Notes: generated by a model not told the origin, from the letters alone. Positions 32,809-52,812 are shown, counted from the stretch's first letter. The stretch is DNA of 64,000 nt from a virus (IMGVR_UViG_3300033463_000003), one strand, 5' to 3'. Program-made: numbers and translations.

Positions 32809-32897
32809 GTTCGCTTCCTCCTTTCTGTTCCGGTAGATTATTGGTCACCCACCTCCTTATAATTTTCATAAGGTGGCCGCTATCGGAACTTTTTTAT
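32745..32897 (+). ncRNA. Candidate small RNA with two anti-Shine-Dalgarno motifs
   Basis: TGTATAAT at 32732; no + ORF; long 3' hairpin gttccggtag/ctatcggaac plus T-tract. Confidence 0.5.
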
Positions 32898-34119: not shown

Positions 34120-36279
34120 ATGATAGTAATTAAAAGAGATGGCAAAAAAGTAAATTTTGATGCCTATAAGATTAGAAAAGCGATAGTTGGTGCTAATTCA
34201 AGATCAAATGAAATGTCCGAGGGCGAAATTGATCGAATTACAGAAATCGTAGTGAATAAATGTTTAAAGAATTCAGGTGATCTTAAAGTTGAAGAGATCC
34301 AGGATATTGTAGAAGATACGCTACTAAAAAGTAAATTTAATAAAACAGCTAAAACTTTCATCTTGTATAGGGATAAACGTACTAGAATTCGTCAAAGCAA
34401 GTCAAAGCTTTTAAAAGAAGTTGGTGATAAGCTTCTTGGTGTACATATTGTTAATCAGAATGCTAATGTTGATGAGAGGTCATTTGGAGGCCGTAAAGGT
34501 GAGGCTGATAGTGTTTTAACTAAACAGTATGCTTTGGACTACTGTATGTCCGAAATGGCTCGAAATAACCATTTAAATAACGAAATCTATATTCATGATT
34601 TAGATTCTTATGCTGTTGGTATGCACAACTGTTTATCAATTCCATTTGATAAGCTTTTGGCTGAAGGTTTTAAAACAAGGCAGACTGATGTTAGACCTGC
34701 AGGGTCAATTAATACTGCATTTCAGTTAGTAGCAGTAATATTCCAGCTACAATCGTTACAACAGTTCGGTGGTGTCTCTGCTACACACTTAGATTGGACA
34801 ATGGTACCATATGTACGTAAATCTTTCTATAAACACTATTTAGAAGGTGCTGAGTGATTAGGTGATTCTGAAACTTCCCAAATTTCGAAATCCACACCTA
34901 TTGATGAGTATCCTAGTGGGAAAGTGTATGATTATGCATTAGCTATGACCAAGAAAGAATTGGACCAAGCAGTTGAAGGTATGTATCATAATTTAAATAC
35001 ATTACAATCTAGATCAGGAAACCAATTACCTTTCACTAGTATAAACTATGGAACTTGTACATCTACCGAGGGCCGGATGGTTACCAGATCATTACTTGAA
35101 GGTTCACTAAAAGGTGTTGGTAAACTACATCGTACACCGATCTTCCCATGTGGCATATTCCAGTATATGAAAGGTGTTAATGACAAACCAGGAACACCAA
35201 ACTATGATTTGTATCAATTAGCACTTAAATCTACTGCAAAACGTTTATATCCAAATTATGCTAATGTTGATTGGTCAAACAATGCAGGCTACGATGTTAA
35301 TGATCCGAAAACTTACTTTTCCACTATGGGATGTCGTACTGCTAATGGTGCAGATATCAATGCTGAACCTGGTACAAATCCACAAACCAAAGATGGTAGA
35401 GGAAATATCTGTCCAGTAACTATTATCTTACCTACACTAGTGATGGAAGCTGGAAGAGATATAGAAAAATTCATGGAACTCTTAGATGTTAAGATTCATG
35501 AAGCAAAAGATATGTTGATCGAAAGATATGAGTATATTTGTAGTCAGTGTGCTGATTCTGCTAAATTTATGTATGAAAACGGTACGATGTTGGGCTACAA
35601 ACCAGAAGAAGGAATTCGTAGTGCAATGAAGCACGGAACTCTTGTAATTGGTCAGATCGCTTTAGCAGAAACACTAGAACTCTTAATTGGCAAGAATCAA
35701 TGTACAGCTGAGGGTATGGAACTTGCTAAAAGAATAGAACAATTATTTAAGGATAGATGTGCAGAATTTAAAAAAGAATATCACTTAAACTTTGGTGTTT
35801 ATTATACTCCAGCTGAAAACTTATGCTACACCGCAATGCAAAAGTTTAAGAAACAATATGGGGTCATCCCACATGTATCAGATCGAGAATATTTCACTAA
35901 TAGTATTCATGTACCTGTGTGGGAGGATGTTACAGCCTTTGAAAAGATTGACATCGAATCGCAACTTACTGGATATTCTAATGCTGGCTGTATTACATAC
36001 GTTGAGTTATCTGCAGCTGCAACAGGGAATTTAGAAGCTTTAGAAAGTTTAGTGAATTATGCTATGGATCACGACATTCCGTACTTTGCAGTCAACATTC
36101 CAAATGATACATGTTTAGATTGTGGCTATACCGGTGAATTTAACGACCACTGTCCAGAGTGTGGTAGTGGGCATATTCAGCAGCTACGTAGGGTTACAGG
36201 CTATTTAACTGGAAACTATAAAACTGCATTTAATTATGGAAAGCAAAAAGAAGTAGAAGATAGGGTGAAACATATTTAA
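34120..36279 (+). CDS. nrdD: Anaerobic (class III) ribonucleoside-triphosphate reductase, 719 aa (code 4)
   Basis: ATP cone VIKRDG, IYIHDLD, STMGCRT, TPAENL, CxxC..CxxC, RRVTGYL; TGA 34855 read through. Confidence 0.95.
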
Positions 36280-37455: not shown

Positions 37456-37525
37456 AAAAATGAAAAAGGCTATTTACAAAATAGTCTTTTTTTGTTATAA
37501 TATTAATATAAGAGAGGAATATATT

Positions 37526-37900
37526 ATGGAAAGATTTGAATTTCACGCCGCATTTCAATTAACAAGAAAGATTATTTTTGAAGTGAGCTATTATACATTA
37601 GGAAGTAATGACTCAGCTTATTTTACAACTTCAGCTGAAGAGTTTAATCAACCTAAGACAGACTATAGTAGAGCTGGCCAAGCACAAGATGATTTGTGCA
37701 CCGGTGCAGCGAGAGCTTTCTATAAAAAGTGGGATCGCTTCCATCTTCATGAACTTAAAGATGAAGAGTTTGAAGAAATGGTTTCTGACTTAGAAGTGTT
37801 AAAACAAAACTATAACTACATTGAACATAAAACAGCAATTAGACCGGCTGATTTAAGTTTTAATGAAATTAAAAAATTATCTATGCAAAAGGTTAAATAA
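37526..37900 (+). CDS. Early hypothetical protein
   Basis: Promoter plus SD GAGAGG. Confidence 0.7.
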   Translation: MERFEFHAAFQLTRKIIFEVSYYTLGSNDSAYFTTSAEEFNQPKTDYSRAGQAQDDLCTGAARAFYKKWDRFHLHELKDEEFEEMVSDLEVLKQNYNYIEHKTAIRPADLSFNEIKKLSMQKVK

Positions 37901-37952
37901 ACTATTTACAAAAGTATTTAATCATGTTATAATATTAATAGAGGTGGAAAAT

Positions 37953-38192
37953 ATGAATAGTAAAATTAAAGAAAACGCACAAGCCGATTGGACAGATATG
38001 ATTATTAAATCTTGGACTTGGGCAAAACTAACTGATGAAGAAAAGAATAGATTTGGTGATGAAATAAATAAATCTATTACACAAAAAGAAGTTATTAAAG
38101 GAACTTATAGACAACGTTGGGAAATACTCAATGCTCTTTATTCAATGTTTTTAGAAGGACTTGGATATAAACCTATTGGCTGGAGGGAATAG
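37953..38192 (+). CDS. Early hypothetical protein
   Basis: Promoter plus SD GAGGTG. Confidence 0.7.
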   Translation: MNSKIKENAQADWTDMIIKSWTWAKLTDEEKNRFGDEINKSITQKEVIKGTYRQRWEILNALYSMFLEGLGYKPIGWRE

Positions 38193-38194
38193 CT

Positions 38195-38356
38195 GTGAAA
38201 ATTGAATTAACAAAAGAAGAAGCCGAAGTTTTAGAATCTTATTTATTTAGAAAGATTTGTGGATTAGAAGAAGCAGGATTAACAGATAGTCGCTGCTATC
38301 CTTTACTTTACTCAATTCGTCAAAAAATAAATAAAAAAATGTTTACAAATAAATAA
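38195..38356 (+). CDS. Early hypothetical protein, 53 aa (not in track)
   Basis: GTG after GGAGG. Confidence 0.5.
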   Translation: MKIELTKEEAEVLESYLFRKICGLEEAGLTDSRCYPLLYSIRQKINKKMFTNK

Positions 38357-38398
38357 TTATGCGATATAATATAAGTAGATAAGTAAGGAGGAATACTT

Positions 38399-38848
38399 GT
38401 GAATAAAAAGAATATAGTTACAAAAGCAAATATTGAAAAAGTTGCCGACTTCTTGGAAAAAGCATGTAGCTACTTTAAGAAAGATGGTAATGGATGCTTT
38501 CACTTCAACCTATCCGATGACTTAGCACTCTATATTGGTTGGTCTGATGGATATGATATGGCAGATACTGATATTATTAAGTCAACTGAAGGCCAAAGAA
38601 AAAATGGCTCTTGGACTTGTGGTTATGCTATCAATGCTGCGGTAAAAGTTAGAAATGACTTTGACTGTGCTGACTTCGATTTCTTAAATTATCCTTATTA
38701 CCCAGAAGATGGTGAAGCTTGGGATAATGGAATTTCTATGAGGCCAAATCAAACTCGTAGGGAATACAGACACGATGCAAGATGGTTTTTAGAAACATTT
38801 GTATCAATGACTAATGCTCACAAGAAAGGGGAAATTGTTTATGAGTAA
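38399..38848 (+). CDS. Early hypothetical protein
   Basis: Promoter plus SD AAGGAGG. Confidence 0.75.
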   Translation: MNKKNIVTKANIEKVADFLEKACSYFKKDGNGCFHFNLSDDLALYIGWSDGYDMADTDIIKSTEGQRKNGSWTCGYAINAAVKVRNDFDCADFDFLNYPYYPEDGEAWDNGISMRPNQTRREYRHDARWFLETFVSMTNAHKKGEIVYE

Positions 38849-39167
38849 TATTAAAGTAGTCGAAACAAAAGAAGAATTAAAAGATTTATACGACAAATGG
38901 GCAATGACTTGGGAAGGTTTAAGAGAACAAGATTTTGAAGAAGCCCTTGAATACTGTGGTGGTGAAGGTGCACAAGGTTATCTAATCAAAGGTAAAGTGA
39001 TGAACGACATTTGCCATTTAACTGATAGTAATGCTTATCCAGATGATCTCAACATCTTTGCAATCTATCCATTCAAAGGATTAGCAATGCAGTATGGTGC
39101 AAGATGGATGACTGACATCATTGATAACAATGCTTATCGTGAAGATTATCACCCATTTGCTGAATAA
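38841..39167 (+). CDS. Early hypothetical protein, paralog of 43802
   Basis: Shared ELKxLY..GGxGAxGY..CxL pattern. Confidence 0.7.
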   Translation: MSNIKVVETKEELKDLYDKWAMTWEGLREQDFEEALEYCGGEGAQGYLIKGKVMNDICHLTDSNAYPDDLNIFAIYPFKGLAMQYGARWMTDIIDNNAYREDYHPFAE

Positions 39168-39250
39168 AAAATTAAAAAAAATTAAAAAAGCCGTTTACAA
39201 ATGCGGCTTTTTATGTTATAATTATAATATAAGAAAAGAGGAAATAAATT

Positions 39251-39511
39251 ATGAAAGTTTACATTATATTTGATGCTTGTAGCGGTGAAGATTACAGCAC
39301 AGATGATCCAACAATTCTTTATGTTTCAACAAGCAAAGAAAAAGCAAAAGAATTCTTTGATGATGAAGTCAGCAATTGGGAAGATGGAATGGAAGAATAC
39401 GATTCTAACATTGATGAATATGCTGATGGCACACTCGTCTATGAATGCACTGACTTTGAAGGTGATTCGCATAGAATTATGAAATTAGTTGAAAGCGAGG
39501 TTGAGGAATAA
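39251..39511 (+). CDS. Early acidic protein
   Basis: Promoter plus SD. Confidence 0.7.
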   Translation: MKVYIIFDACSGEDYSTDDPTILYVSTSKEKAKEFFDDEVSNWEDGMEEYDSNIDEYADGTLVYECTDFEGDSHRIMKLVESEVEE

Positions 39512-39810
39512 TGGCAAAGAAAACTCAAGAACAAAAACTTATTGAACAAATGCTTCAATGCTTGTGGGACGTAAGTGATATTCAAATGGAACACATTGAT
39601 GATACTAATTATCGTGAGTTCTATGAAGAAGCCGCCGATGCACTTGATATGTATGATGGTGCCGAAGCTGATGCAGACAGACTCACCTATGAAAACTTAG
39701 ATGAGTATGTTACTTTAAGAAACGAATTAGTTGAACTTCTTAAAGCAAAAGGTATGTCTAAAGAAGAAAGATTAAACTTTATTAGACAAGAAACTTGCTG
39801 GGAGGACTAA
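39511..39810 (+). CDS. Early acidic protein
   Basis: TAATG coupling. Confidence 0.7.
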   Translation: MAKKTQEQKLIEQMLQCLWDVSDIQMEHIDDTNYREFYEEAADALDMYDGAEADADRLTYENLDEYVTLRNELVELLKAKGMSKEERLNFIRQETCWED

Positions 39811-39812
39811 GT

Positions 39813-40115
39813 ATGGGAACAGTTGACAGATTAAAAGAAAGACTTGAACACAAAGACTATATTGGTAAAGCTTGTCCAATTTGTGGTGCAGCTCCTACTC
39901 TAAAATCAAGAGGCTTCGACCCTTGGGGTGATATGGGTTATGATTGTTGCACAGAATTTTGGCTAGAATGCAGCGGTTGTGGTATTATTAAGGCAGGTGC
40001 TTATAACAATATTAATACTAAAGATGCAGAAGCTAAAAATGAAGCAATCAAAGATTGGAATGAGGTAGTTGATTATGTTGATGATCTCATTACTAAAACT
40101 CATAAAGAAAAATAA
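39813..40115 (+). CDS. Lar-like (restriction alleviation family) Zn-finger protein
   Basis: CPICG...CSGCG...EAIKDWN. Confidence 0.65.
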   Translation: MGTVDRLKERLEHKDYIGKACPICGAAPTLKSRGFDPWGDMGYDCCTEFWLECSGCGIIKAGAYNNINTKDAEAKNEAIKDWNEVVDYVDDLITKTHKEK

Positions 40116-40188
40116 TTAAAAAAGATTAAAAAGGGTTTACAAATAACCCTTTTTATGTTATAATATAAGTATAAGAGGTAAAAAATAT

Positions 40189-40437
40189 ATGACAAATTAC
40201 ACACACATTAATGATTGTTGGAAAGCAATTAGAGAAGCAAAGACAATTGAAGAAGTTGAAATGCTTTTTGATACTTTTCCAAGATGGTCTGGAAACTGGT
40301 TTGTCCAAATTGAAAATGATTCTTTCTATGGAAAAGTTTATGTTGTCTATAATACTTATTGGGACAACAACTTAGATCAAGAGGAAACTGAATGTGAAAC
40401 TCTTGAAATTGAAGTGCCAGATTTTGAAGAAGAATAA
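40189..40437 (+). CDS. Early acidic protein, paralog of 40846
   Basis: HIxxxW..TxEExE..NxYWDxNL shared. Confidence 0.7.
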   Translation: MTNYTHINDCWKAIREAKTIEEVEMLFDTFPRWSGNWFVQIENDSFYGKVYVVYNTYWDNNLDQEETECETLEIEVPDFEEE

Positions 40438-40513
40438 AAGAAACTATTTACAAATATCATAAAATATGATATAATTATAATAGAGAAAAGATAATAGGAG
40501 GAAAACAAAACCT

Positions 40514-40846
40514 ATGAAAAAATATGTAATTCATTTTATGAGCTTAGACGCACCATCTATTGAAGATGATGGTCTTGAAAGTGGAACTGGTTGTGGTGTC
40601 TATGAAAAAGCATTTGATACCAAAGAAGAAGCCGAAAAGTTTTTAGTTGAAGAACTCATCCCTCAAGATAAAGCAGAACTTGAAGAATGTTACGGCTTCA
40701 ATGAAAAAGAAGAAGGTTGGGAACCTACAGTTTATATTACTGTTGAAAAAGGTATGTGGGGAAGAAACACTTTAGTTGTTACCGACAAGTTTGATGCCAC
40801 AGAAATCAATATCACAATTTATGATATTGCGGAGGTAGAGTTCTAA
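40514..40846 (+). CDS. Early acidic protein
   Basis: Promoter plus SD AGGAGG. Confidence 0.7.
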   Translation: MKKYVIHFMSLDAPSIEDDGLESGTGCGVYEKAFDTKEEAEKFLVEELIPQDKAELEECYGFNEKEEGWEPTVYITVEKGMWGRNTLVVTDKFDATEINITIYDIAEVEF

Positions 40847-41064
40847 TGAAACATATCAGTGAGGTTTGGGAATTCTTAGATCAATTTAAGACTAAGGAAG
40901 AATTAGAAAAAGCATTTGGAGAAATTCAAAATAAGTTCGGTAGTTTTGAAATTACTAACTTGTCTACAGCAAAAGAAGACGGATACTTCGAAATCTGTAA
41001 TTCTTATTGGGATGAAAATCTTGGTGACTACGACTACGACTACCATTGTGTAGAAATTTGTTAA
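40846..41064 (+). CDS. Early acidic protein, paralog of 40189
   Basis: TAATG coupling; shared motif. Confidence 0.7.
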   Translation: MKHISEVWEFLDQFKTKEELEKAFGEIQNKFGSFEITNLSTAKEDGYFEICNSYWDENLGDYDYDYHCVEIC

Positions 41065-41136
41065 AAAACTATTTACAAAAGCAACATTTTGTGATATAAT
41101 TATAATATAAGATATAGAGTATAAGGAGGAAAAAAT

Positions 41137-41376
41137 ATGTACTTTAATGTCGAAATTGAACTAATTAGAGATGATGGCTGTAATGTGCTATACATCGCTC
41201 ACGATGGTTCTTCTGGTTGCGAATATGTGTTTGAGACCAAAGAAGAATTAGCCGACTACATCAAGGATTATGTTGATGACATCGTTGAAGAAGAAGTTGA
41301 CTTAGACGAACTCAAAGAAGAATATCCTGATGAAGACGAAGACGACGAAGACAGTGAAGATGAGGATGACGACTAA
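41137..41376 (+). CDS. Extremely acidic early protein
   Basis: Promoter plus SD; poly-D/E tail. Confidence 0.7.
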   Translation: MYFNVEIELIRDDGCNVLYIAHDGSSGCEYVFETKEELADYIKDYVDDIVEEEVDLDELKEEYPDEDEDDEDSEDEDDD

Positions 41377-41612
41377 TGAAAACTTATTATGTAATGTATT
41401 GGAATGATCGTGAAGATTATCCCGTTGCAGTATTTGAAGTTAAAGCTGACTGTGAGGAAAATGCAGAACAAATTGCATTTCTTGAAGGCGGTAGAGACTA
41501 CGAAGATGACTGGCCTCTTCTAATTGAAACTAACATAAATGAAAGTCGTTTAGCCAGATACAAAAATTCAGTTTGGACTAAATATAAAGTTTGTAAAGGA
41601 GAACTGATATGA
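41376..41612 (+). CDS. Early hypothetical protein (under code 4 the track's TGA end would read through a short distance)
   Basis: TAATG coupling at start; ATGA overlap with next gene. Confidence 0.6.
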   Translation: MKTYYVMYWNDREDYPVAVFEVKADCEENAEQIAFLEGGRDYEDDWPLLIETNINESRLARYKNSVWTKYKVCKGELI

Positions 41613-41803
41613 GACGAGGTGGAGACAGTTATTACGTCTTAGTTAATAAAGACGGTGAAGAGTACACAATTGAAGATTATTGTGATACCTACGTTATGGA
41701 CTATGACAGTTGGGAACTCGCAGAGCAAGAACTAAAAGAAATGCTTGAAGAGGAAGAACTGTTTGAAGAAGACGGTTGGCACGTTGAAAGACGTCGTTGG
41801 TAA
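41609..41803 (+). CDS. Early acidic protein
   Basis: SD AAGGAG; terminator at about 41815-41845. Confidence 0.65.
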   Translation: MRRGGDSYYVLVNKDGEEYTIEDYCDTYVMDYDSWELAEQELKEMLEEEELFEEDGWHVERRRW

Positions 41804-42030
41804 AATAAAAAATAAAAACCCGATAAATAAGTCGGGTTTTTATTTTTCAAAAAACTATCGGAACTAAATTTTTATCAGACATCCCGACCCTGTACGGGTA
41901 ACTTTTTACTAAATTAGTGGTTTTTAGCTTTCCGCCAGATTCATCAGATTCGGCGGAAGTTAATTTTGGAAAAAAAGAGTTTACAAATTGGTTAATATGT
42001 GGTATAATATAATAAGAGCGAGGTATAATT

Positions 42031-42228
42031 ATGAAAACAGTGGAGAGCTTATTAAGAGAAATTGGCATCAAAGCTAATTTAGGAACTTGGACTGACGAAC
42101 AAGGTCATCACGCTATTTGTTATACAAGAAAACAAGGAAACTCGTGGGTTAGAATATTAAAAGATGCCGGTTATAAAGCAAAACTCGTTTATGATAATTA
42201 CGCTTACATTGTGATATTTAATAAATAG
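42031..42228 (+). CDS. Early hypothetical protein
   Basis: Promoter plus SD GAGG. Confidence 0.65.
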   Translation: MKTVESLLREIGIKANLGTWTDEQGHHAICYTRKQGNSWVRILKDAGYKAKLVYDNYAYIVIFNK

Positions 42229-42241
42229 GAGGAAATAATTT

Positions 42242-42541
42242 ATGTATTACAAAGTTAAAATTACTTCGGTTGATTATTGTGTTGAAGAACAAGATGTGTG
42301 TGAATATGTTGACAATGATCCAGAAATTGAAGAAGATAGTGAAGAATACTATGACGCAATTCACGCAAAGATTGAAGAAGTTAAAAGTAGATTGCCACAA
42401 GAGCTTATTTTGGAAGTTGAATGCGATCGTAAAAGCTTAGAAGATGTTTTAGTCGATGCTATCAGTGAAGAGACGGGTTGGTTGGTAAATAACTTCACAT
42501 ATAAAATCTTAGAAAGAAAATTTTCCAAACATTATTTATAA
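42242..42541 (+). CDS. Early acidic protein, paralog of 29825
   Basis: SD AGGAGG; shared LPQEL..ISEETGWL. Confidence 0.75.
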   Translation: MYYKVKITSVDYCVEEQDVCEYVDNDPEIEEDSEEYYDAIHAKIEEVKSRLPQELILEVECDRKSLEDVLVDAISEETGWLVNNFTYKILERKFSKHYL

Positions 42542-42608
42542 AAAAATGAAAATAGGGCATTTACAAAAATGCTCTTTTATGTTATAATATATATGTGAGG
42601 CGAAAAAG

Positions 42609-42977
42609 ATGACAGAAAAAGAAATTAAAGCAGCAAAAGATTTGTTGCATATGAGATACTATGGCGATGGTTGCATTAGACCAGGAGTCAAGTGGCTAAA
42701 AGAAGACGAGATTTTTGAAGAAGAATTATCTTGTAGAGAGATGATTAACTCTATTCTTATCTATGGCGGGAGTTGTGAGAAAGGCAGTTATCAATACGAT
42801 AAGTACTTAAAACCATATACTGAAAAAGAAACTTGGCACGATGGCTTAATTACATTAACCAGACTTGATGAACTAATCAAAGAACAAAAAGCTGATATTG
42901 CAAAAGCAGAAATTGGCTTTGCAGGTTATGACTCTGAAGGAGTCAGTTATAATTATTGTAAATGGGCGGATGAATAA
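42609..42977 (+). CDS. Early hypothetical protein
   Basis: Promoter plus SD. Confidence 0.7.
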   Translation: MTEKEIKAAKDLLHMRYYGDGCIRPGVKWLKEDEIFEEELSCREMINSILIYGGSCEKGSYQYDKYLKPYTEKETWHDGLITLTRLDELIKEQKADIAKAEIGFAGYDSEGVSYNYCKWADE

Positions 42978-42978
42978 T

Positions 42979-43182
42979 ATGGAACTCGTTAAAGTTAATA
43001 GCTCCAACATTAAAGCAGTTGGTTGGGAAAATAATACATTGTTTGTTGCTTATAATTCTGGCATTTATATGTATGAAAATGTAAAGAGAGAATTATACGA
43101 ACAATTATTAAATGCTGAATCAAAAGGTAAGTTTGTTTGTGAGAACATAAAACCTAATTTCAGTTATAAAAAAGTTGAATAA
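42979..43182 (+). CDS. KTSC domain protein
   Basis: VNSSNIKAVGW..LFVAY..YMYENV..LLNAESKGKF. Confidence 0.85.
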   Translation: MELVKVNSSNIKAVGWENNTLFVAYNSGIYMYENVKRELYEQLLNAESKGKFVCENIKPNFSYKKVE

Positions 43183-43401
43183 TTCTTTATTCATATATAC
43201 TTCCTTTCGGTAAAAGGTCAGGCTGTGGTCTGGCTTTTTATTTTGCAAAACTATCGGAACTAAAAATTTACGTTCTGTGATCCCGATGTTGAAGCTAAAA
43301 CCACTAAAAGTGGTGAGTCACGGTCGAGGGCCGCGGTCTGCGCAGATTCATCTAGATATGTGGATCGAAAAACTGTATAATATAATAGAGAGGTTTTTAT
43401 T

Positions 43402-43731
43402 ATGAAAGTTAAACTTTACAAGAGGCTAAGAGGTCACGATGCAGCGCAGCTATTGGAATCGATCACAGAAAATACTGATTTAGTGAAAGTCCAAGCATCA
43501 GACTACGATGTGGAACCGTATGTGGTTGATTTAGATTTCGAAGATCGAATCATTTTTGGTAAAGATGAAATTTTATCTAATCCTAAAAAAGTGATTGGCA
43601 TTATAGATATGGAGATGTTCATGAAGAACCACATGTGGCAGGAATTCGAATATGGGGATATAGTGGAATTTGAAGACCACCGATTCATCAAAGCTCCGAA
43701 AGCTTATGTGGCCGTCGAAATAAAAAATTAA
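43402..43731 (+). CDS. Hypothetical protein
   Basis: TGTATAAT promoter at about 43374 plus SD. Confidence 0.65.
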   Translation: MKVKLYKRLRGHDAAQLLESITENTDLVKVQASDYDVEPYVVDLDFEDRIIFGKDEILSNPKKVIGIIDMEMFMKNHMWQEFEYGDIVEFEDHRFIKAPKAYVAVEIKN

Positions 43732-43801
43732 AAAAATTTAAAAAAACTATTTACAAATACTTTAAAGTACGTTATGATGTAATATGAAGGAGGAGAGAGT
43801 T

Positions 43802-44158
43802 ATGACAAACATTACTACAATTACGACTCTTATGGAACTAAAGAAGCTCTATCTCGATGGTGCTTATGTTTTAGAGAATCCATCTGATGAGTATAGCTTA
43901 GAAGCACAAGTAGAGCGTTTTGGTGGAACTGGTGCAGTAGGTTATACATTTACTGGTGAATTTATTTATACAGTATGTGGTTTACCAGAAAGCTCAATAT
44001 TACCTAAAGATAAACTTTATTTGGTAATTGTTCCAGCAAATGAAAGTTATAAAAACTCGATCTTAATTTCACTCAAAGATTTAATTTTTAGATTTAGTGC
44101 TAGAACCGGATTTAATTTATTTGCGGCTCGTAGAATTGTTCAAGAAGAAAAAGAATAA
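43802..44158 (+). CDS. Early hypothetical protein, paralog of 38841
   Basis: SD AGGAGG. Confidence 0.7.
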   Translation: MTNITTITTLMELKKLYLDGAYVLENPSDEYSLEAQVERFGGTGAVGYTFTGEFIYTVCGLPESSILPKDKLYLVIVPANESYKNSILISLKDLIFRFSARTGFNLFAARRIVQEEKE

Positions 44159-44234
44159 AAAATAATTCAACTGACTATTTACATTTATCTCGAAATATGT
44201 TATAATATTATTAAGAAAAGAGGTAAAGTAAATT

Positions 44235-44684
44235 ATGAAAAATAGACCATACGAAGAATATAATGCAATTCCAGTCCTTGAAAGACTTGAAAGAATGATT
44301 GAGGCAGGCCATCCACGATGGATTAGAGATGTTTATGATGATTTAAGCATCTTCGACTGGTGGCCAGAGAGATTAACTATCACTCACATGAAACAAATGA
44401 GAACCTTCTTAAAAGAAGCTATTAAGTTAGGTTATACTGGTTATGTTTGCTTTAAGGTTGGAGCTTCTGGTTGTGCTAATGGTATGTGGGCTTGTAAAGT
44501 CCCTACAACAACAGGATATAGTCCCGATGGTGAAACTATTTATAGAAGTTTTACTCCTGATTATACATATTATGCTGTTCAAGACAAGAAGGGCCGCTGG
44601 CTTCCATCAGAAGAAGTAGATGGCAACAGATTTGACTCTTGCAAAACTATTAAACAACTTGAGACATTAGTTGCAAGTTTATAA
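44235..44684 (+). CDS. Early hypothetical protein
   Basis: Promoter plus SD. Confidence 0.75.
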   Translation: MKNRPYEEYNAIPVLERLERMIEAGHPRWIRDVYDDLSIFDWWPERLTITHMKQMRTFLKEAIKLGYTGYVCFKVGASGCANGMWACKVPTTTGYSPDGETIYRSFTPDYTYYAVQDKKGRWLPSEEVDGNRFDSCKTIKQLETLVASL

Positions 44685-44761
44685 AAAACAAAAAAATGAA
44701 AAAAACCTATTTACAAAGTAGGTTTTTTATGTTATAATATAATAATAAGGAAGGTAAGGTT

Positions 44762-45277
44762 ATGAAAAAGATTAACAAGAAGACAAGCTTCGCATTTAGA
44801 AAGAACATTTATTTATTGGGCAGAGACGAGGACGGTATTAACTACTGGCTCGAAGAACCTACGTTCGATTGTGGTTGGTATTGGGGTTTAGGTTATATCG
44901 AAACTTATACTAATAATCGTAGTCCTCAAAATTCTAAAGACATTCAGTCTCACGAACACTTTATCTCAAAGTTTTTAGATAAGGGTTATGATACTTATAG
45001 AAACTTTTTCAAGGAATCGACATTAGACGAAAAAGAAATTTGGAGACTCTTAGAACTTATGAGTACTTCTTATACATTAGAGAAAGCAGCAAGACTTTTT
45101 GAGAAGGGGTCAGCGTGGGTTGCTAAGAATGATTGCTACGATGTAATTAAGGATCAAGACTTATACGAAGAAATAGTAAAAGTAAAACTTCCAGCAGTCA
45201 ATTCAGCTATTTGTAATTTGCTTGGAGGCAATACAACTCCAGACTACTTTACAAAGATGGTAAAGATTGAAGATTAA
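44762..45277 (+). CDS. Early hypothetical protein
   Basis: Promoter plus SD; FDCGWYWGLGY motif. Confidence 0.75.
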   Translation: MKKINKKTSFAFRKNIYLLGRDEDGINYWLEEPTFDCGWYWGLGYIETYTNNRSPQNSKDIQSHEHFISKFLDKGYDTYRNFFKESTLDEKEIWRLLELMSTSYTLEKAARLFEKGSAWVAKNDCYDVIKDQDLYEEIVKVKLPAVNSAICNLLGGNTTPDYFTKMVKIED

Positions 45278-45328
45278 CTATTTACAAGTTAATCTTTTTG
45301 TGTTATAATATTATAAGAGGTGAAGAAT

Positions 45329-45916
45329 ATGAAAAAAAGATTATTTCAAAAATCAGGAGTTGACATTTGCTCCGCAAAATCAATGTTTAATTTTATCAAT
45401 GAACATTTTACTTATTGGACAATGAATAGTTGGAACAGGTTAGAGTCAATTGCTAACAATGTTAAACTTTATAATTTACATTTAGACGGAGATTGGACAG
45501 TTGCTTTAAGTTATCTTTATGACGAAGAAGATATTGGTGGACTCCAGCAAGAAATTAGAGATTTAATTTGGATGTGGGAAAAAGATCATCAAGGATACTC
45601 ATTAGGATTTAATGGGCGCAGTGATGGTTATTTAGTTATATATAATCATGATAAACATTCTGGTCACGTTAACTTTAGAAACATTTTACCAGACGATTTA
45701 GTTGGCTTCGATACTTATGAAGACTTTAAGGAAAACTTAAAAGAATGGTATGGTTGGACAGTTAAAGATTATTTACCAGAACTAAGAGAATATACAGAAC
45801 TAATTAGAAGTTTTGATAAACTTTGCGATGACATTAGAGCATTGGTTAATGAATATTCTTTAATGGACTACGAAGCAGACAAGAAAGCTTTTGACTTCGA
45901 GAATGGAGTAGAATAA
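45329..45916 (+). CDS. Early hypothetical protein
   Basis: Promoter plus SD; GFNGRSDGYLV motif. Confidence 0.75.
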   Translation: MKKRLFQKSGVDICSAKSMFNFINEHFTYWTMNSWNRLESIANNVKLYNLHLDGDWTVALSYLYDEEDIGGLQQEIRDLIWMWEKDHQGYSLGFNGRSDGYLVIYNHDKHSGHVNFRNILPDDLVGFDTYEDFKENLKEWYGWTVKDYLPELREYTELIRSFDKLCDDIRALVNEYSLMDYEADKKAFDFENGVE

Positions 45917-45917
45917 A

Positions 45918-46259
45918 ATGGAAAAAGAAAAATTTGAAGAATTTGAAGAAGATGTAGAACTAAGTGAAAGACCTATCACTTATGAAGTCTGGATTTTAGG
46001 CTACGACGAAAATTATGAAGATAATGATTTTGAATTTTTATTGGACGATGGTTATACAGAACTCGTCGAAGCTAAAAAGTGTTTTGAATATTTCACTATT
46101 CCAGAAAATTTAAAAGCTTATCTCGATCTTAAGAATGTTAAAATTCCAGAAGACACAAAACATATCAATCTTTTCTTAGAAGAATGTGTGCAACTTCCAG
46201 ATTCAGACCTTGTAGAATGCGATGACATTTTAGAAGAAGTTGAAGTGGAAATTCTTTAA
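45918..46259 (+). CDS. Early acidic protein
   Basis: SD GGAG. Confidence 0.7.
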   Translation: MEKEKFEEFEEDVELSERPITYEVWILGYDENYEDNDFEFLLDDGYTELVEAKKCFEYFTIPENLKAYLDLKNVKIPEDTKHINLFLEECVQLPDSDLVECDDILEEVEVEIL

Positions 46260-46325
46260 AAAACTATTTACAAGCACAAATATATATTGTATAATATAAT
46301 ATAGAATTATAATGAGGTGAACTTT

Positions 46326-46610
46326 ATGAGAAGTAAATATTTAGGAAGAAAGTTCGGACGTTGGACCGTAACTCGTGCAGCAAAAACAGAAGATGGTAAT
46401 CATACCAGATTTTATCTAACAAGAACAACTCACGACGGAGCAATTAAAACAGTTGCACTTCGCGACAATGAATTAACCGCTTTAAGTCGTGGTGAAAAAA
46501 CAATGCAAAGTTTACTTAAGGGTAAACAATTTCAAAGAGACAGATTTCCAAGCAGAGAATATAGAAACTCAGTTTGGTATACTTATAAAACTAATGGTAG
46601 CTTAGAATAA
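46326..46610 (+). CDS. Basic hypothetical protein
   Basis: Promoter plus SD GAGGTG; YLGRKFGRWTV. Confidence 0.7.
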   Translation: MRSKYLGRKFGRWTVTRAAKTEDGNHTRFYLTRTTHDGAIKTVALRDNELTALSRGEKTMQSLLKGKQFQRDRFPSREYRNSVWYTYKTNGSLE

Positions 46611-46639
46611 TTTTAAGCTACAGAAGGAAGGTAAAGGGT

Positions 46640-47533
46640 ATGGCAAATGAACTTTTTGTGCAGTCAAGAACTTATGCACAGCTATTAAAACAGAATAAGG
46701 GCATTGACTATTCCACTTGTAATGTAGATACATTAGCAGATGGTTATTGTGATGCAACAGATGCTGGAGATGAATATGAAAGAACATTATTTATTTCCGG
46801 ACTTGTTTTACGTTTTTGGTTTGCAGTAAAGAAGATGCAAGAGAAGTCACCGAATTTAGGATATGATCAAGACGAATTCGCTGACTGGCTTTATGAAGCA
46901 CTAGAATATGCATGTAAATACAGAGCATGGCGCGATCCTGATAAAAAAGTAAATGCGCAACAGGCAATAAATCAATGTATTGAAACTATCAGGCTCCAGC
47001 ATTATTATCAGCTAAATTTACAAAAACATAAAACTAATTTTAGCACTATTTCACTTGATACTCCTGTCGCAGGAACAGATGAAGAATCATTAACTTTATT
47101 TGACCAAACAGAAGATGAACAAGCAGAACAAGATATGAAAGAAACTAAAGGTGCACTTACAGCTCGTGCGATCGTGCAAGCTTTTATCGATAAGAAAGAT
47201 TTAGTGGGTGCAGTTATATCGGACCTCATCGCGTTCAATGATTTCAATAAAGAAATTAAGACAACTAATAAATTTATTGATGATGAAACTGGTGAAGAAT
47301 GCAAAACTACTAACTACAGTTATGAGTTTTGGCCATTCAAAGCAGTTCAAGCAATGAAGGAACTTCCAAATGATTATGCAGAGTATTTTATTGAAAACTA
47401 CAATGTTAAACCAGAAGCTATTATTGCAGTAATAGAGGCCATTAGACGCGCGAATAGTGCTAAACTATATAAATACTTAAGAGACTTTTTAAGTAAGGCT
47501 AAAACTACGTTTAAATATCAGGAGGCTTGTTAA
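46640..47533 (+). CDS. Putative phage sigma-factor-like protein
   Basis: Region-2-like DQDEFADWLYEALEYACKY and region-3-like TISLDTPVAGTDEESLTLFDQ. Confidence 0.5.
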   Translation: MANELFVQSRTYAQLLKQNKGIDYSTCNVDTLADGYCDATDAGDEYERTLFISGLVLRFWFAVKKMQEKSPNLGYDQDEFADWLYEALEYACKYRAWRDPDKKVNAQQAINQCIETIRLQHYYQLNLQKHKTNFSTISLDTPVAGTDEESLTLFDQTEDEQAEQDMKETKGALTARAIVQAFIDKKDLVGAVISDLIAFNDFNKEIKTTNKFIDDETGEECKTTNYSYEFWPFKAVQAMKELPNDYAEYFIENYNVKPEAIIAVIEAIRRANSAKLYKYLRDFLSKAKTTFKYQEAC

Positions 47534-48246
47534 TGAACTTAGATATTTTATCAATTCGAAACTGTACGTTGAACATAAATGAGAAGCTTATTCAGATGAT
47601 CGGTTTGGATACCGCAGCTTACTTAACAGTGGTTTTAGACGCACTTCATCAGGCTGTAAAAAAGAACAAAGTTAATGATGAAGGCTTTTTCAAACTCGAC
47701 AGAAAGTATGCAACTGAAAGAACAGGCTTATCAACTACAGAACAGAAGCATTGTGATGAAAGACTCATGGCTCTCAACCTAATGAAGCGTGATCCAGAAG
47801 CACTAAATTCGTTATCTGTCGATGTTGGAGCTGTTGTACAGTTCATTCAACAGGATGATGCGAAATTCATTGATCAAGTTAAGTTAACTTTAGCAAAAAC
47901 TAAAAAAGTAGAAGCTGAAGAATATAAAAGAGAACAAATTATTAGAATTGCGAAGGCACAGGTGAAAACAACCGATTTTGAAATTCGTCAATCTATTTTC
48001 GATTGGATAGAAGCGATGGATGGAACTCTAAAGAAAGCACAAGTTGGTTTGGTTGAAGACGCAGTTGATAATTATTCTAAAGATAAACAAACAAGAATTA
48101 AAATTTTTCAAATCTTAGCAATTAACAACTGGCGCGACCCGCAGTGGGCAATTCAAAGATACGAAAGAGACTACAAACCTAAAGGTTTAGGGGAACAAAA
48201 GACAGCAACCTCTCTCGCAGACGTTAATATGAGAAAGGCATTCTAA
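47533..48246 (+). CDS. Putative replication initiator (N-terminal winged helix)
   Basis: LIQMIGLDTAAYL..GFF..ERTGLSTTEQ pattern of phage initiators. Confidence 0.55.
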   Translation: MNLDILSIRNCTLNINEKLIQMIGLDTAAYLTVVLDALHQAVKKNKVNDEGFFKLDRKYATERTGLSTTEQKHCDERLMALNLMKRDPEALNSLSVDVGAVVQFIQQDDAKFIDQVKLTLAKTKKVEAEEYKREQIIRIAKAQVKTTDFEIRQSIFDWIEAMDGTLKKAQVGLVEDAVDNYSKDKQTRIKIFQILAINNWRDPQWAIQRYERDYKPKGLGEQKTATSLADVNMRKAF

Positions 48247-48249
48247 ATT

Positions 48250-48528
48250 ATGATAAATAAAAATTATTTAGTTGATTATTTATCCAACTCGCGAGAATAT
48301 GATAATTTGGAAAAGAGAATTATTGAATTAGAAGATGCAATTCAAACATGCGATGATTGCATCGAGGCTCTCGAAAATTCCAGTAAAGATTTCACAAATA
48401 GTTTGGATAATCTTGCAAGACAAAGAAACTTACTTAACTTGGAAAGAATTGAACTTGCAATTAGAAAAAATAAGATCGAAAAAGATATGTTATTGTTCGA
48501 AATAGACCAGAGCACAACATCTGAATAA
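48250..48528 (+). CDS. Coiled-coil hypothetical protein
   Basis: Operon spacing; terminator at 48544-48575. Confidence 0.6.
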   Translation: MINKNYLVDYLSNSREYDNLEKRIIELEDAIQTCDDCIEALENSSKDFTNSLDNLARQRNLLNLERIELAIRKNKIEKDMLLFEIDQSTTSE

Positions 48529-48766
48529 ATTAGACCTTCCTTCAAGCTCAGCAGAATATCACTGTTGAGCTTTTTATTTTGCGTACAGTACGATGTACAG
48601 TACGTACAGTACAGCTACAGTACTTCCTGAAATTCCACTAATAAGTAGTTTATTGGGTCACCATAAATTCGATGTTGATGTGTGTGGTTTGTGGAAATAA
48701 AAATTAACAACTAACTATTTACATTTAGGGTCAGTTGTGTTATAATAATAATGTGAGGTAAATAAT

Positions 48767-48940
48767 ATGAGTTCAATTGTTAAAAAGTTAATTCAAGAGA
48801 CGTGGGTCGACTACTTCTCCGGAAACAAAGAAGAAATCTTAAAACAAGTTGATAAAGAAGCATTGGAAGAATATCAAAGTGCAATGTTGAGACTTGAAAC
48901 TGATTTTGATTTTCAAAGAGAGTTAGGAATTGGAAACTAA
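48767..48940 (+). CDS. Early hypothetical protein, 57 aa (not in track)
   Basis: Promoter 48718 plus SD GAGGT. Confidence 0.6.
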   Translation: MSSIVKKLIQETWVDYFSGNKEEILKQVDKEALEEYQSAMLRLETDFDFQRELGIGN

Positions 48941-48941
48941 T

Positions 48942-49319
48942 ATGCCTATTGATTATAATGATTGGAAAGAGTTTGTTCAAGGCAAATTAAATTGTAAGGT
49001 AAAACAAGAAGATAAAGTTCGAACTTGTATAAGGCTTGATACTCAAACTTTAATTAACTCATTAGACGGGGAGTCAAAACAGTACGTTTTGGACGTTGCA
49101 AAAGGGCAGGCAGAGAAGTATGGAAATCTAAATGTCTGGTCTGCGGTAATTTATGACTATCATGTTGAAATAAATATGGGTGAATGGTTTATTGCTGTTT
49201 ACTTTAGTCCAGAAACTCATAATGCAACTAACTGGGTTGGAAATGCAAGAGGTTCAAAGTTTGAACTACAACTTCTACAAATTGCAAAAGAACTTCATCA
49301 ACAACTTCAAGATTTATAA
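48942..49319 (+). CDS. Early hypothetical protein
   Basis: Coupled to previous gene; terminator follows. Confidence 0.65.
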   Translation: MPIDYNDWKEFVQGKLNCKVKQEDKVRTCIRLDTQTLINSLDGESKQYVLDVAKGQAEKYGNLNVWSAVIYDYHVEINMGEWFIAVYFSPETHNATNWVGNARGSKFELQLLQIAKELHQQLQDL

Positions 49320-49344
49320 GAACTGAAACTTCAGTTCTTTTTTT

Positions 49345-49715
49345 TATTCCAATAAAAATTCGATCCGCCGAAATTGATGAATCTGGCAGAAAGTCAAATC
49401 CAACTAAATTAGTGAAATTGTACTATCTTCGTTCCTGATCAGATTTTGAGGTGACAAGTCTGATGAAGAGTTCGGTAAGACTGATGATTGTACAGATGAA
49501 TTCCGATGTTGTACAGATGAAAAAGCTTTTTAGTGGTTTTTTAGCCTGATGCATGTACGATGCGCAGCGTACTGCAGAGCGAACTGCGCAGACGATTCCG
49601 ATCCTGTAACAGGATCTGCGCAGATGAATTAGAATCGTTTAGTAGTTAGTGGTTTTAACTTCACCTCCACATGAATTCGGAAATTTTTCGTGGCATATTG
49701 GTTTAGTCGAAAAAA
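49345..49715. repeat. Non-coding palindrome-rich island with three TTAGTG-core motifs
   Basis: Cores at 49409, 49530, 49646. Confidence 0.65.
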
Positions 49716-49781
49716 AGTTAATTTGGTTATTTACAAATTAAGACTAATATGGTATAATATAATAAAGAGAGGAAAAGAAAT

Positions 49782-50225
49782 ATGAAACCAAAAAGAACTG
49801 CAATTACAAATTATTATGATTGTTATGAAGTCGGTTATATTAAATTAGGTTGCGTTGGTAATGGTAATCCAGACCATCAAGATAGAACAGTTATTACCAG
49901 AACATTAAATCTTGGTGGTGTTCAAAGACTTGCTAATGTCTACGGAATTAAATTTGTAAACAATGATGATATTTACGCAACTGGTTATTATATAAAAGAA
50001 GTTGAAACAACCAAAGACCCTGATACTTTTGTAAATGAATTAGATAAACTAGATGAAGTATTTATGGAAGAAGCGGAATATAGACAAGCACTTAAACAAA
50101 TTCGTCAAATGTCAGACACACTAAATTATGGTGTATTATCTGAAGATGAGTGGAATAAGCTATCAAAAGAACTAGATGTTCTTGTTGAAAGGTCAAAAGA
50201 ATTAGACAGAAAACTTCATTATTAA
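49782..50225 (+). CDS. Early hypothetical protein
   Basis: Promoter plus SD. Confidence 0.7.
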   Translation: MKPKRTAITNYYDCYEVGYIKLGCVGNGNPDHQDRTVITRTLNLGGVQRLANVYGIKFVNNDDIYATGYYIKEVETTKDPDTFVNELDKLDEVFMEEAEYRQALKQIRQMSDTLNYGVLSEDEWNKLSKELDVLVERSKELDRKLHY

Positions 50226-50308
50226 GTTGGTAAATAAATACCAACTTTTTATTTACAAAGTCGACATTATGTGGTATAATATAAATATAAGAAAGAAGGA
50301 AACTAATT

Positions 50309-50524
50309 ATGACATTAAGAGATAGTTTGTTAAAAAAAGTTCCGGCAGATAATTATGTTAAAATTTATGACGAGGACTGGTTTGTCGCAATGTGTTATGT
50401 TGATGATGAAGATTTATTCATTAGATATATGGACGACGAATTATTAAGTCGTGAAGTTGACATTATTACAATGGTTGAAGATGGAGATTTTACAACTGAT
50501 ATTTATGATATTTATTTGAAGTAG
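50309..50524 (+). CDS. Early acidic protein
   Basis: Promoter plus SD. Confidence 0.65.
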   Translation: MTLRDSLLKKVPADNYVKIYDEDWFVAMCYVDDEDLFIRYMDDELLSREVDIITMVEDGDFTTDIYDIYLK

Positions 50525-50534
50525 GAAATAAATT

Positions 50535-50663
50535 ATGGAAATGTTAAGTAAGATTATAATTCAATTATTGGCATGCTTCATTGGTTGGCAAATTGGTAAA
50601 TTTATCGCAATTAAAATAATGATAAGAAAGGCAATGAAAGAAAACAATGAAGAAGAATTATAA
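50535..50663 (+). CDS. Small membrane protein, 42 aa (not in track)
   Basis: IIIQLLACFIGWQIGKFIAI hydrophobic segment. Confidence 0.5.
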   Translation: MEMLSKIIIQLLACFIGWQIGKFIAIKIMIRKAMKENNEEEL

Positions 50664-50787
50664 AGTTATTGTTTTGAATATGGGGGAGGAACTTGAAACT
50701 CTACATTATCATAAAACAATAAAGCAAATTAAAAAACAATATAATCTTGAGAAACTTGAGATTGTATCTATTGAAGAGATTAACTAA
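50647..50787 (+). CDS. Small hypothetical protein, 46 aa (not in track)
   Basis: Open frame ending in a terminator hairpin. Confidence 0.4.
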   Translation: MKKNYKVIVLNMGEELETLHYHKTIKQIKKQYNLEKLEIVSIEEIN

Positions 50788-51043
50788 ATTGGTTAATCTT
50801 TTTTATTTACAAAGTTGGTAAGTCGCGCTACGATGTACATGATGAATGTAGATGAAAGCTTTTAATTCCACTAAAAGAAAGTTAAGCTAATATATCTGAT
50901 GCAGCTGTACGAGATGCTCTTGAAATTGGACTGATTTGAACTTCACAAGAAATTCGAAGAGTTGAAAAAAAGTTAATTTGGCTATTTACAAGTTGGGGTA
51001 AATATGGTATAATATAATAAAGAGAAGAGAGGAAATAAAATTT

Positions 51044-51370
51044 ATGAAATTTAGAAACTATCATCAAGTCTTAAAAGCAAGAGGTTATAAGGTAAGGGAG
51101 TTGTCAAAGTATCAAGGTTTAAATGTATTCGAGAAAGAACATTTATATAATAAGATAGTTTGCACAATTATGAAAGATAGTCACGGCAAGGGGCAAACAA
51201 TAACTTTCAATATCTACAATACTCTTAGAACTCCAAAGAATATGATTGAGTTTGGAGACGCCGAATTTGATAGAAGTTATCTTGTTAAAGAGGCTAAAGT
51301 TATTGTTGAGGCTTTTGAGAAACTAAGAGAGATGAAAGCACCTGTAAAATATATTTATTGTTTCAATTAA
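51044..51370 (+). CDS. Early hypothetical protein
   Basis: Promoter plus SD. Confidence 0.7.
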   Translation: MKFRNYHQVLKARGYKVRELSKYQGLNVFEKEHLYNKIVCTIMKDSHGKGQTITFNIYNTLRTPKNMIEFGDAEFDRSYLVKEAKVIVEAFEKLREMKAPVKYIYCFN

Positions 51371-51399
51371 GGTTAGATGAAAATCTAATCTTTTTTTAT

Positions 51400-51855
51400 T
51401 TACATTTGTCTAAGAATATGCTATCATGTACATGATGAAGCTGGATCACAGCTTCTTTTTTCACTAAAGAGAAGTCATAGCTTCACAGACTGATCAGCTG
51501 AACAGACTGTAGAAGTCGAACTTGAGCAGTCGAACTGATCTGATGAATTCAGATGAAAGCTTTTGTGAAGCTAAATTAGTGGTTTTAACTTCAGATGCAT
51601 GTACGATTGTACGATGTTGTAGAACTGTAACTCACAGATTGTAACTGTTACAGTCACAGCTGTACAGATCAGATGCGTAGATGCAGAAGCTAATTAGTGG
51701 TTTTTATACAAGCTACATGTACGATGTAGATGTACATGAATACAGTTCGAGAGCATGACTACAGATACTGTTACAGCTACAGTGCGATGTAGATGTAGAT
51801 GAAGCTAATTAGTGAAACATTGGATAAGCAGATCAGATTCTTGAGATGCTCGTGA
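51400..51855. repeat. Non-coding palindrome-rich island with GAAGCTAA(A)TTAGTG repeats
   Basis: Cores at 51576, 51694, 51809; inverted half-site at 51462. Confidence 0.7.
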
Positions 51856-51942
51856 TAATAAAATAAAAAATATTTCAACTTGCTATTTACAAATAATTAA
51901 AAACATGTTATAATATATATAGAAAGTGAGGTAAGACAAATT

Positions 51943-52218
51943 ATGAATCTTACAAAAGTTAATGGTTGTTATTCTAAAGAACTAAGAGAAGCAACAACTG
52001 ATATTAAATTATTATTAAAAGAAAGAACAGTCGACGTTGAGACAATGAGAGAGTTTGTTAATACTATCATTGAGCCGGCATTTATAGAAGCAAAAGCCAA
52101 AGCAAGATTTAAAGAAAATCTAAATGCCTGTCAAACAAAAGAAGAGATTGATAATCTTTGTTATATGGCAGTCATTCATGGAATGTATTATACTCCACAT
52201 AAAAAAGTTAATTGTTAA
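51943..52218 (+). CDS. Early hypothetical protein
   Basis: Promoter plus SD. Confidence 0.7.
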   Translation: MNLTKVNGCYSKELREATTDIKLLLKERTVDVETMREFVNTIIEPAFIEAKAKARFKENLNACQTKEEIDNLCYMAVIHGMYYTPHKKVNC

Positions 52219-52812
52219 TGTTCCATATAGTTTCTCTTTTTGCGGGAAGTCGAAGAACTAAAAACTCTTCGGCTTTTTCTTTTGTCCAATTAGAAGTCGA
52301 GCTTCTCGTTTGTGATCAGCGCGTGAGAATCTAAGAAGCTAATTAGTGGTTTTAGTTTAAGCTGTACAATCTGATACTGTACGTGGATCGAAATTCTGCC
52401 TCGCGACTAATTAGTATGTAGAAGTAAAAGACAGATACTATATATGTAGCAGATCGAAGTTGGATAATATATAGATAAATTTAGTAATATATATGTTTAC
52501 ATGCATGTAAGTTATAGCATAAAAGTAGCTAAATGTAAAGAGTAATATTGGTATATAGATAGTATATATGGGTCTAGATATAGTATATATTAGGCTAGAT
52601 CATAGCTATTTTGGGCTATAAAAAAGGCACTAAAAAAGCCCATAATCTGGCGTAGGGGCGGGGCTAATTTTGGCACCCTTAGCGTTTGTCCTAGAGAGCA
52701 ATATTTTTTCGTACGTACGCGCGCACACGCCTATACGCATAAAAAGAAGAGCAGCAAAATGAGCTGCAAAAAATTATTGTCTTTACTGTATAATATATAA
52801 GAGGTTTAAAGT

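Follow-up and report, generated by a model that had tools for sequence, protein, structure and literature searches.

Candidate terminator-promoter junctions of the PeSL type in the early gene region of an uncultured rumen jumbo phage

In T4-type phages, small genes of unknown function in hyperplastic regions of the genome are separated by promoter-early stem-loop (PeSL) elements, in which strong early promoters are fused to terminator stem-loops (PMC2839356; PMC4122927). PeSL cassettes have been described in RB49 and phi1 (Arbiol et al. 2010, PMC2839356) and in PST/T4 and nt-1/KVP40 (Comeau et al. 2014, PMC4122927). Promoter activity, terminator activity and recombination between elements have all been shown experimentally; the stem-loops terminate approximately as well as rrnB T1, and the promoters are very strong (PMC2839356). 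Five positional subclasses are recognized, one of which has the stem-loop overlapping the -35 box (PMC2839356), and the stems of nt-1 take the form A3-4 G3 ... C3 T3-4 (PMC4122927). A full-text literature search for terminator hairpins overlapping -35 boxes returned nothing specific beyond the PeSL papers. In the present study we analyzed a 64,000-nucleotide stretch of the viral contig IMGVR_UViG_3300033463_000003 (hereafter the window, from whose first letter all positions are counted), in which a series of junctions between small early genes carries a hairpin built around the -35 box. We think it likely, on the strength of sequence comparisons, that these junctions are composite intrinsic-terminator/early-promoter elements of the PeSL type.

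The geometry of a -35 box lodged inside a terminator hairpin is already present in described PeSLs. In the sequence of Vibrio phage nt-1, near 50.5, 54.9 and 55.6 kb, the -35 box (TTGCAC or TTGCTT) falls within a hairpin whose T-tract lies in the promoter spacer, and this spacer measures 17 nt at both TTGCAC sites. The junctions of the window resemble PeSLs in joining a host-type strong early promoter, with AT-rich upstream sequence, to a stem-loop that is predicted to be capable of terminating upstream transcription. They are likewise located between a stop codon and the next ribosome site, among small genes of unknown function in gene-dense variable regions, and relatives of the window seem to differ by whole cassettes at these points. 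The early promoters of T4 and PST also have a TTTACW -35 box (PMC4122927). What is new relative to PeSLs is the phage lineage, the Gram-positive-style signals (a TRTG extended -10 and strong AGGAGG-type ribosome sites) and the stems, which are specific to each junction here and near-identical among PeSLs. Two further differences are that only one third of the window's promoters carry a hairpin, and that mini-circles and crossovers inside the element are features demonstrated for RB49/phi1.

The window belongs to an uncultured rumen jumbo phage of approximately 273 kb, its protein P0001 being encoded on a contig of up to that length. It is phage-like and AT-rich (31.8% GC), and almost all of its genes lie on the + strand. 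The pattern TTTACA-N15-19-TATAAT occurs 23 times in it against 0.57 expected, a number reached by none of 100 shuffles. Non-overlapping TTTACA promoters on the + strand number 21, and 18 of these fall between 37.4 and 52 kb. They follow the stop codon of one gene and precede the Shine-Dalgarno site and start of the next small open reading frame (ORF), and most have A-rich DNA on their upstream side; in both respects they resemble the sigma-70-like early promoters of PeSLs. A preliminary description had singled out seven junctions with an inverted repeat centered on TTTACA and a -10 at 17-bp spacing. Its coordinates and arm sequences proved correct in all seven cases, and so did the frame: TATAAT stands 17 nt after TTTACA and has TGT directly before it (7/7).

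Six of the seven repeats held as hairpins in unconstrained RNA folds, with energies of -9.0 to -13.2 kcal/mol and z-scores of -3.0 to -6.6 relative to shuffled sequence (class I in Table 1). The repeat at 48707, already suspected of being weaker, was not significant: 13 of 200 shuffles fold equally well, the repeat holds an A.C mismatch, and a real terminator lies upstream of this promoter (48544-48572). Class I stems are 9-14 bp long with 2-4 G-C pairs. Their loops span 3-10 nt, not the full hexamer with its flanks, because the TTT of the -35 box is in many cases base-paired with the next AAA. One G.U pair is found in the stem at 37462, where the T-run lies within the promoter spacer, and one in the stem at 42554; at 45269 the stop codon of ORF 44762-45277 is inside the 5' arm. 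At these sites, after a stop codon, the parts of an intrinsic terminator are thus all present: a stem containing G-C pairs, a loop of small size and a tail rich in U. At three other junctions (class II) a terminator precedes the promoter and its T-run leads into the -35 box. All nine hairpins of the two classes have z-scores of -3 to -6.6 and are followed by a T-run. Class I energies lie within the same range as those of the window's six free-standing terminators (-10 to -17.7 kcal/mol); a simple terminator scan overlooks most of them, its loop limit being 8 nt and its demand at least 3 G-C pairs. Six hairpin-less promoters folded at 0 to -4.8 kcal/mol with z near 0, and about seven consensus promoters are without any terminator.

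Table 1. Positions of junctions, promoters, terminators and early genes in the window (energies in kcal/mol)
Feature	Position	Strand	Hairpin or terminator	Energy	z	-35	-10	Remarks
Class I junction	37462..37501	+	37462-37492	-11.4	-6.6	37473-37478	37496-37501	
Class I junction	39185..39222	+	39185-39212	-13.2	-4.1	39194-39199	39217-39222	
Class I junction	40127..40164	+	40127-40155	-11.9	-3.0	40136-40141	40159-40164	
Class I junction	42554..42588	+	42554-42575	-9.0	-4.1	42560-42565	42583-42588	
Class I junction	44700..44738	+	44700-44728	-10.9	-4.0	44710-44715	44733-44738	
Class I junction	45269..45309	+	45269-45297	-9.7	-3.8	45281-45286	45304-45309	
Promoter with weak inverted repeat	48707..48746	+	48707-48738	-6.4	-1.4			Not significant
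Class II junction	50224..50280	+	50224-50247	-10.5	-3.6	50252-50257		T-run straight into -35
Class II junction	50776..50834	+	50776-50800	-9.0	-4.6			T-run abuts TTTACA; non-consensus -10
Class II junction	51369..51427	+	51369-51392	-9.6	-3.6	51399		T-run abuts TTTACA; N17; TATCAT
Free-standing terminator	41810..41845	+		-17.7	-5.9			Strength yardstick
Free-standing terminator	48544..48572	+		-15.5	-4.2			
Hairpin-less consensus promoters	37905..46295	+				37905, 38342, 40447, 41072, 41980, 44178, 46267		
Further hairpin-less consensus promoters	49730, 50985, 51886	+						
Early ORFs, ~40, small	37527..52218	+						One- to four-gene units behind TTTACA promoters; most without known family

One could suppose that A-rich, UP-like DNA upstream of the -35 box and T-rich spacers downstream of it pair by chance, and that the hairpins are a by-product of promoter composition. 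Upstream A-runs of at least 4 are in fact similarly frequent in hairpin-less promoters (48/78) and hairpin promoters (24/30; P 0.07). However, pairing was lost when the upstream arm of each promoter was folded with the spacers of other promoters, a control that keeps the A-run/T-run bias and is stricter than the AT-matched promoter comparison proposed in the preliminary description. True partners gave a mean of -3.14 kcal/mol and swapped partners -0.78, and 0 of 20,000 permutations reached the observed mean. In a core-only test, which asked for a 4-bp core containing two or more G-C pairs and disregarded the A and T tracts, hairpins were found at 5 of 22 promoters in the window (1.5 expected, P 0.006) and at 27 of 108 in the window and relatives together (7.6 +/- 2.3 expected; permutation maximum 16, n=2000). 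The T-runs, too, are particular to hairpin promoters. On average, 4.56 of the 5 nt past the 3' arm are T, compared with 2.11 when hairpin-less promoters are read at the corresponding positions (P 1e-12), and T-runs of at least 4 accompany 29 of 30 hairpin promoters versus 14 of 78 others (window and relatives), so that the T-run belongs to the hairpin and not to the promoter. With the swapped-partner and core-only tests, a chance or compositional origin is refuted, and we regard it as barely conceivable.

The same design recurs in relatives with different stems. A family alignment of the protein encoded at 44762-45277 (A1) retrieved 160 loci; among these, L082, L083, L084, L085, L086, L112, L006 and L002 (51-71% identity in this protein) have the same promoter. 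Embedded hairpins with other stems are present in the related rumen contigs L082 (class I hairpins at 3 of 4 promoters), L083 (2/4), L085 (5/13), L112 (5-7 of 11), L006 (3/13) and L084/L086. The junction at 44700, which lies upstream of the 44762-45277 gene family, has orthologous counterparts with other stems, five different stems being found at this position in the window, L082, L083, L085 and L094. When eight junctions of the same geometry were aligned, both partners had changed in five pairs and 96.9% of cells were paired, a proportion that fell to at most 70% when the partners were slid by one to three columns; these eight junctions had been selected for having hairpins, and the unbiased tests are the swapped-partner and core-only ones. 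The claim that stems vary between junctions while pairing is kept was supported by the arm swaps and by the relatives. An exact-pattern scan of IMG/VR for one stem type (GGGG...CCYC) found the succession A-run, GGGG, TTTACA, CCYC, T-run, TATAAT in 11 further viral contigs (L162-L172), whose GC content is 31-43% and one of which reaches 302 kb.

It had also been suggested that the inverted repeats might act as DNA cruciforms, extruded by negative supercoiling, that would move the -35 box into a loop and switch the promoter on or off. When TTT/AAA pairing is counted, some of the repeats do have 11-14 bp arms with 3-7 nt loops in AT-rich DNA. A cruciform would be strand-symmetric, whereas the hairpins are not. 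Among the non-Watson-Crick positions of the variable arms, G.T (G.U in RNA) outnumbers A.C by 13 to 2 (P 0.007), and one of the two A.C cases comes from the doubtful repeat at 48718. The sense RNA fold is stronger than the antisense fold at 6 of 6 class I junctions (mean -11.0 versus -8.1 kcal/mol), and polarity is fixed on the coding strand, with the A-run always 5' and the T-run always 3'. Moreover, a repeat is missing altogether from the majority of promoters with the same core. This strand asymmetry led us to reject the supercoiling switch, which we hold to be very improbable. Because of the linkage of the T-run, the excess of G.U over A.C and the stronger sense fold in all six cases, the evidence points to class I hairpins being sense-strand RNA terminators rather than DNA cruciforms.

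A palindromic operator, through which a dimeric repressor would shut off the early promoters, is just as hard to reconcile with the window. Its arms all differ and would be unreadable by any single protein, and G.T pairs break the symmetry of the DNA; the operator reading was rejected for the window on account of the arm sequences, and its chance of being correct seems to us minimal. That protein-binding palindromes may exist in the group is indicated by L002, a 237-kb viral contig with 13 promoters, in which a conserved palindrome, ATGAAARCGYTTTCAT, is found 12-25 nt upstream of nearly every -35 box and is sometimes doubled. There it stands in place of the variable hairpins, perhaps as an operator or as a weak terminator.

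An RNA-level alternative is that the hairpins protect 3' ends without causing termination: read-through RNA would be cut or trimmed by 3' exonucleases, and the hairpin would stabilize the upstream message. The sense-strand signature is compatible with any role at the level of RNA, and the G-C cores are short, which would suit such a function. Yet a stabilizer has no need of a U-run, to which the hairpins are tightly tied, and the geometry is the same as that of the window's own free-standing terminators. We consider protection of this kind unlikely, and prefer to view class I hairpins as predicted terminators.

Under the terminator reading, host sigma-70/sigma-A RNA polymerase would start approximately 7 nt past each extended -10 (TGTTATAAT) and transcribe one to four small early genes per unit. 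At six junctions the transcript would then run through the A-run, the junction-specific 5' arm, the next -35 box (as loop or stem top), the 3' arm and 4-7 U, this U-run corresponding to the T-rich spacer in front of the next -10. The hairpin and U-run would release or attenuate the upstream RNA just before the next -10, roughly at -17 to -8 from the next start. Three jobs would thus be combined in one stretch of 40 bp, with the A-run serving as an UP-like element, the loop as the -35 box and the U-tract as the spacer. Early transcription units would in this way be short and insulated in part, and hardly any DNA would be left unused between them. The notion that a single element of about 40 bp ends one cassette and starts the next holds as far as anatomy goes, since both the terminator and the extended -10 promoter are complete; that termination occurs, how efficient it is and that the host polymerase uses the promoters, we infer from this anatomy.

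Two observations weigh against this interpretation. An embedded hairpin is found at just 6 of the 18 consensus promoters of the 37-52 kb region, and insulation would therefore be selective and would not extend to the array as a whole. In addition, there are only 2-4 G-C pairs in each core, with stability coming largely from A:U pairs with the U-run; efficiency may therefore be modest, and the elements could be attenuators instead of full stops. DNA matching the window comes from bovine gut metagenomes, whereas no RNA run was found to contain it. The closest isolates by protein are the Thomasclavelia phages TR-TP1 and TR-TP2 (71% identity in NrdD), together with a Clostridium innocuum phage, and because of these affinities the host is probably Erysipelotrichaceae-like. 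P0002-P0006 are the closest homologues (71-80% identity). In TR-TP2 genes are tightly packed and the promoter motif is essentially absent (1 match in 101 kb). A megablast search of the 37-49 kb region against 50,697 phage records gave zero matches, and IMG/VR searches with three single window proteins were without a hit to any relative, loci being retrieved with the A1 family alignment only.

After intrinsic termination, the RNA polymerase of bacteria frequently remains bound to the DNA, from where it is able to initiate again at a promoter close by (PMC6978380; PMC10372574). One might therefore envision that RNA is released inside the next promoter and that the same polymerase is handed to the next cassette. 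If so, the junctions would not be simple insulators but stations of a relay, producing separate short mRNAs without loss of polymerase flux. We give such termination-coupled re-initiation a small chance of being correct.

The preliminary description had further pictured plug-in cassettes shuffled by recombination at the shared promoter core. Comparison with relatives supports the view that promoter-bounded cassettes are units that they gain, lose and reorder; the proposed site of exchange fared less well. Homologues of the window's genes are found in altered orders. For example, the pair 44235/44762 precedes 45320 in the window and in L002 but follows the 46640/47527 pair in L082 and L112. Of 11 neighbour pairs separated by a promoter junction, 2 have stayed adjacent, versus 9 of 12 within operons (P 0.012), although the operon class is dominated by the conserved trio 46317-46640-47527. 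L084 and L086, which are 97% identical, differ in structure at only three places, each time by an entire module with a promoter or terminator junction in it. The left breakpoints coincide with a stop codon or terminator and the right ones with a ribosome site or start codon, outside the promoter core. Several joints in rumen contigs do fall between -35 and -10 (e.g., 41080>44213, 40154>51905 and 45287>42575), and others are away from promoters (39492>40514, 41055>41374). Many of these joints have short sides, 21-39 nt, on shared promoter sequence; they are consistent with cassette turnover and are no proof of core crossovers. If two junctions recombined within the loop, arms that do not match would be brought together and the hairpin would be destroyed; swapped arms pair at -0.78 kcal/mol on average. 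Three junctions (44168-44210, 48708-48750 and 51876-51918, with the -35 box at 44178, 48718 and 51886) have a common 5' arm, CAACTNRCTA, before the -35 box. Only that at 48718 has kept a matching 3' arm, to which the arm at 44178 is a better complement than its own. Such half-hairpins may be what is left after a duplication, or after recombination within the loop.

Two other known arrangements invite comparison. Bidirectional intrinsic terminators also consist of a stem, a small loop, a 3' U-run and a 5' A-run able to pair with it, and the junction energies equal those of the window's free-standing terminators. They differ from the junctions in that here a -35 box forms the loop or the top of the stem, and a promoter spacer forms the U-run; in addition, the window has no opposite-strand gene or promoter that could use the reverse direction. 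The morons of lambdoid phages are, like the cassettes, self-contained accessory genes that are separately transcribed (PMC2839356). Unlike them, morons are single insertions with a separate promoter and terminator, are often oriented against the surrounding transcription, and share no common junction element.

Several of the free-standing terminators are followed by long gene-free spacers (41846-41979, 43241-43370, 48573-48717, 49340-49729, 50812-50984, 51456-51885 and 52230-52480). Inside these are short GTACAG / GATGTA / TGTACGAT-like repeats, and after the repeats comes a AAGCTAATTAGTGGTTTT-like motif, with copies near 41911, 49521, 49643, 51573, 51685 and 52334. The repeats and this motif may represent a non-early promoter class of the phage's own, or small RNA genes. 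An exact motif, CTATCGGAAC, which is part of a 36-nt repeat, occurs at 32880, 41855 and 43251, just 3' of terminators. Two paralogous mini-units, 50806-50882 and 51399-51475, consist of a terminator abutting TTTACA, N17, a -10 of TACGAT or TATCAT, and then GTACATGATGAA; in the latter unit another terminator follows directly (51437-51455), giving a predicted transcript of only ~30 nt. A tRNA scan and an Rfam scan of the window produced no hits.

Among the cassette proteins, 9 of 10 tested are without a named family. The small ORF at 39795-40115 (+) encodes a Lar-like restriction alleviation protein (Pfam PF14354, E 7e-7; PHROG 599), whose predicted function fits an early anti-defence region. 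Upstream of the array, translation with table 11 splits the NrdD-like reductase at 34120-36279 into two ORFs (34120-34857 and 34924-36279); in the relatives TR-TP1/2, an HNH endonuclease is inserted in NrdD.

For annotation, the junctions would serve as predicted boundaries of transcription units, and would also show which blocks of genes turn over in these phages. The window also offers a natural paired set, one promoter core with and without an embedded terminator, which may provide compact parts for synthetic biology and could be used to ask whether release of RNA inside a promoter favors re-use of the polymerase. More generally, our findings would extend PeSL-type junctions from T4-like phages of Gram-negative hosts to unrelated, uncultured rumen jumbo phages with Gram-positive-style signals. 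This argues that fusing terminator and promoter is a convergent, general solution to the problem of packing many independently started early genes.

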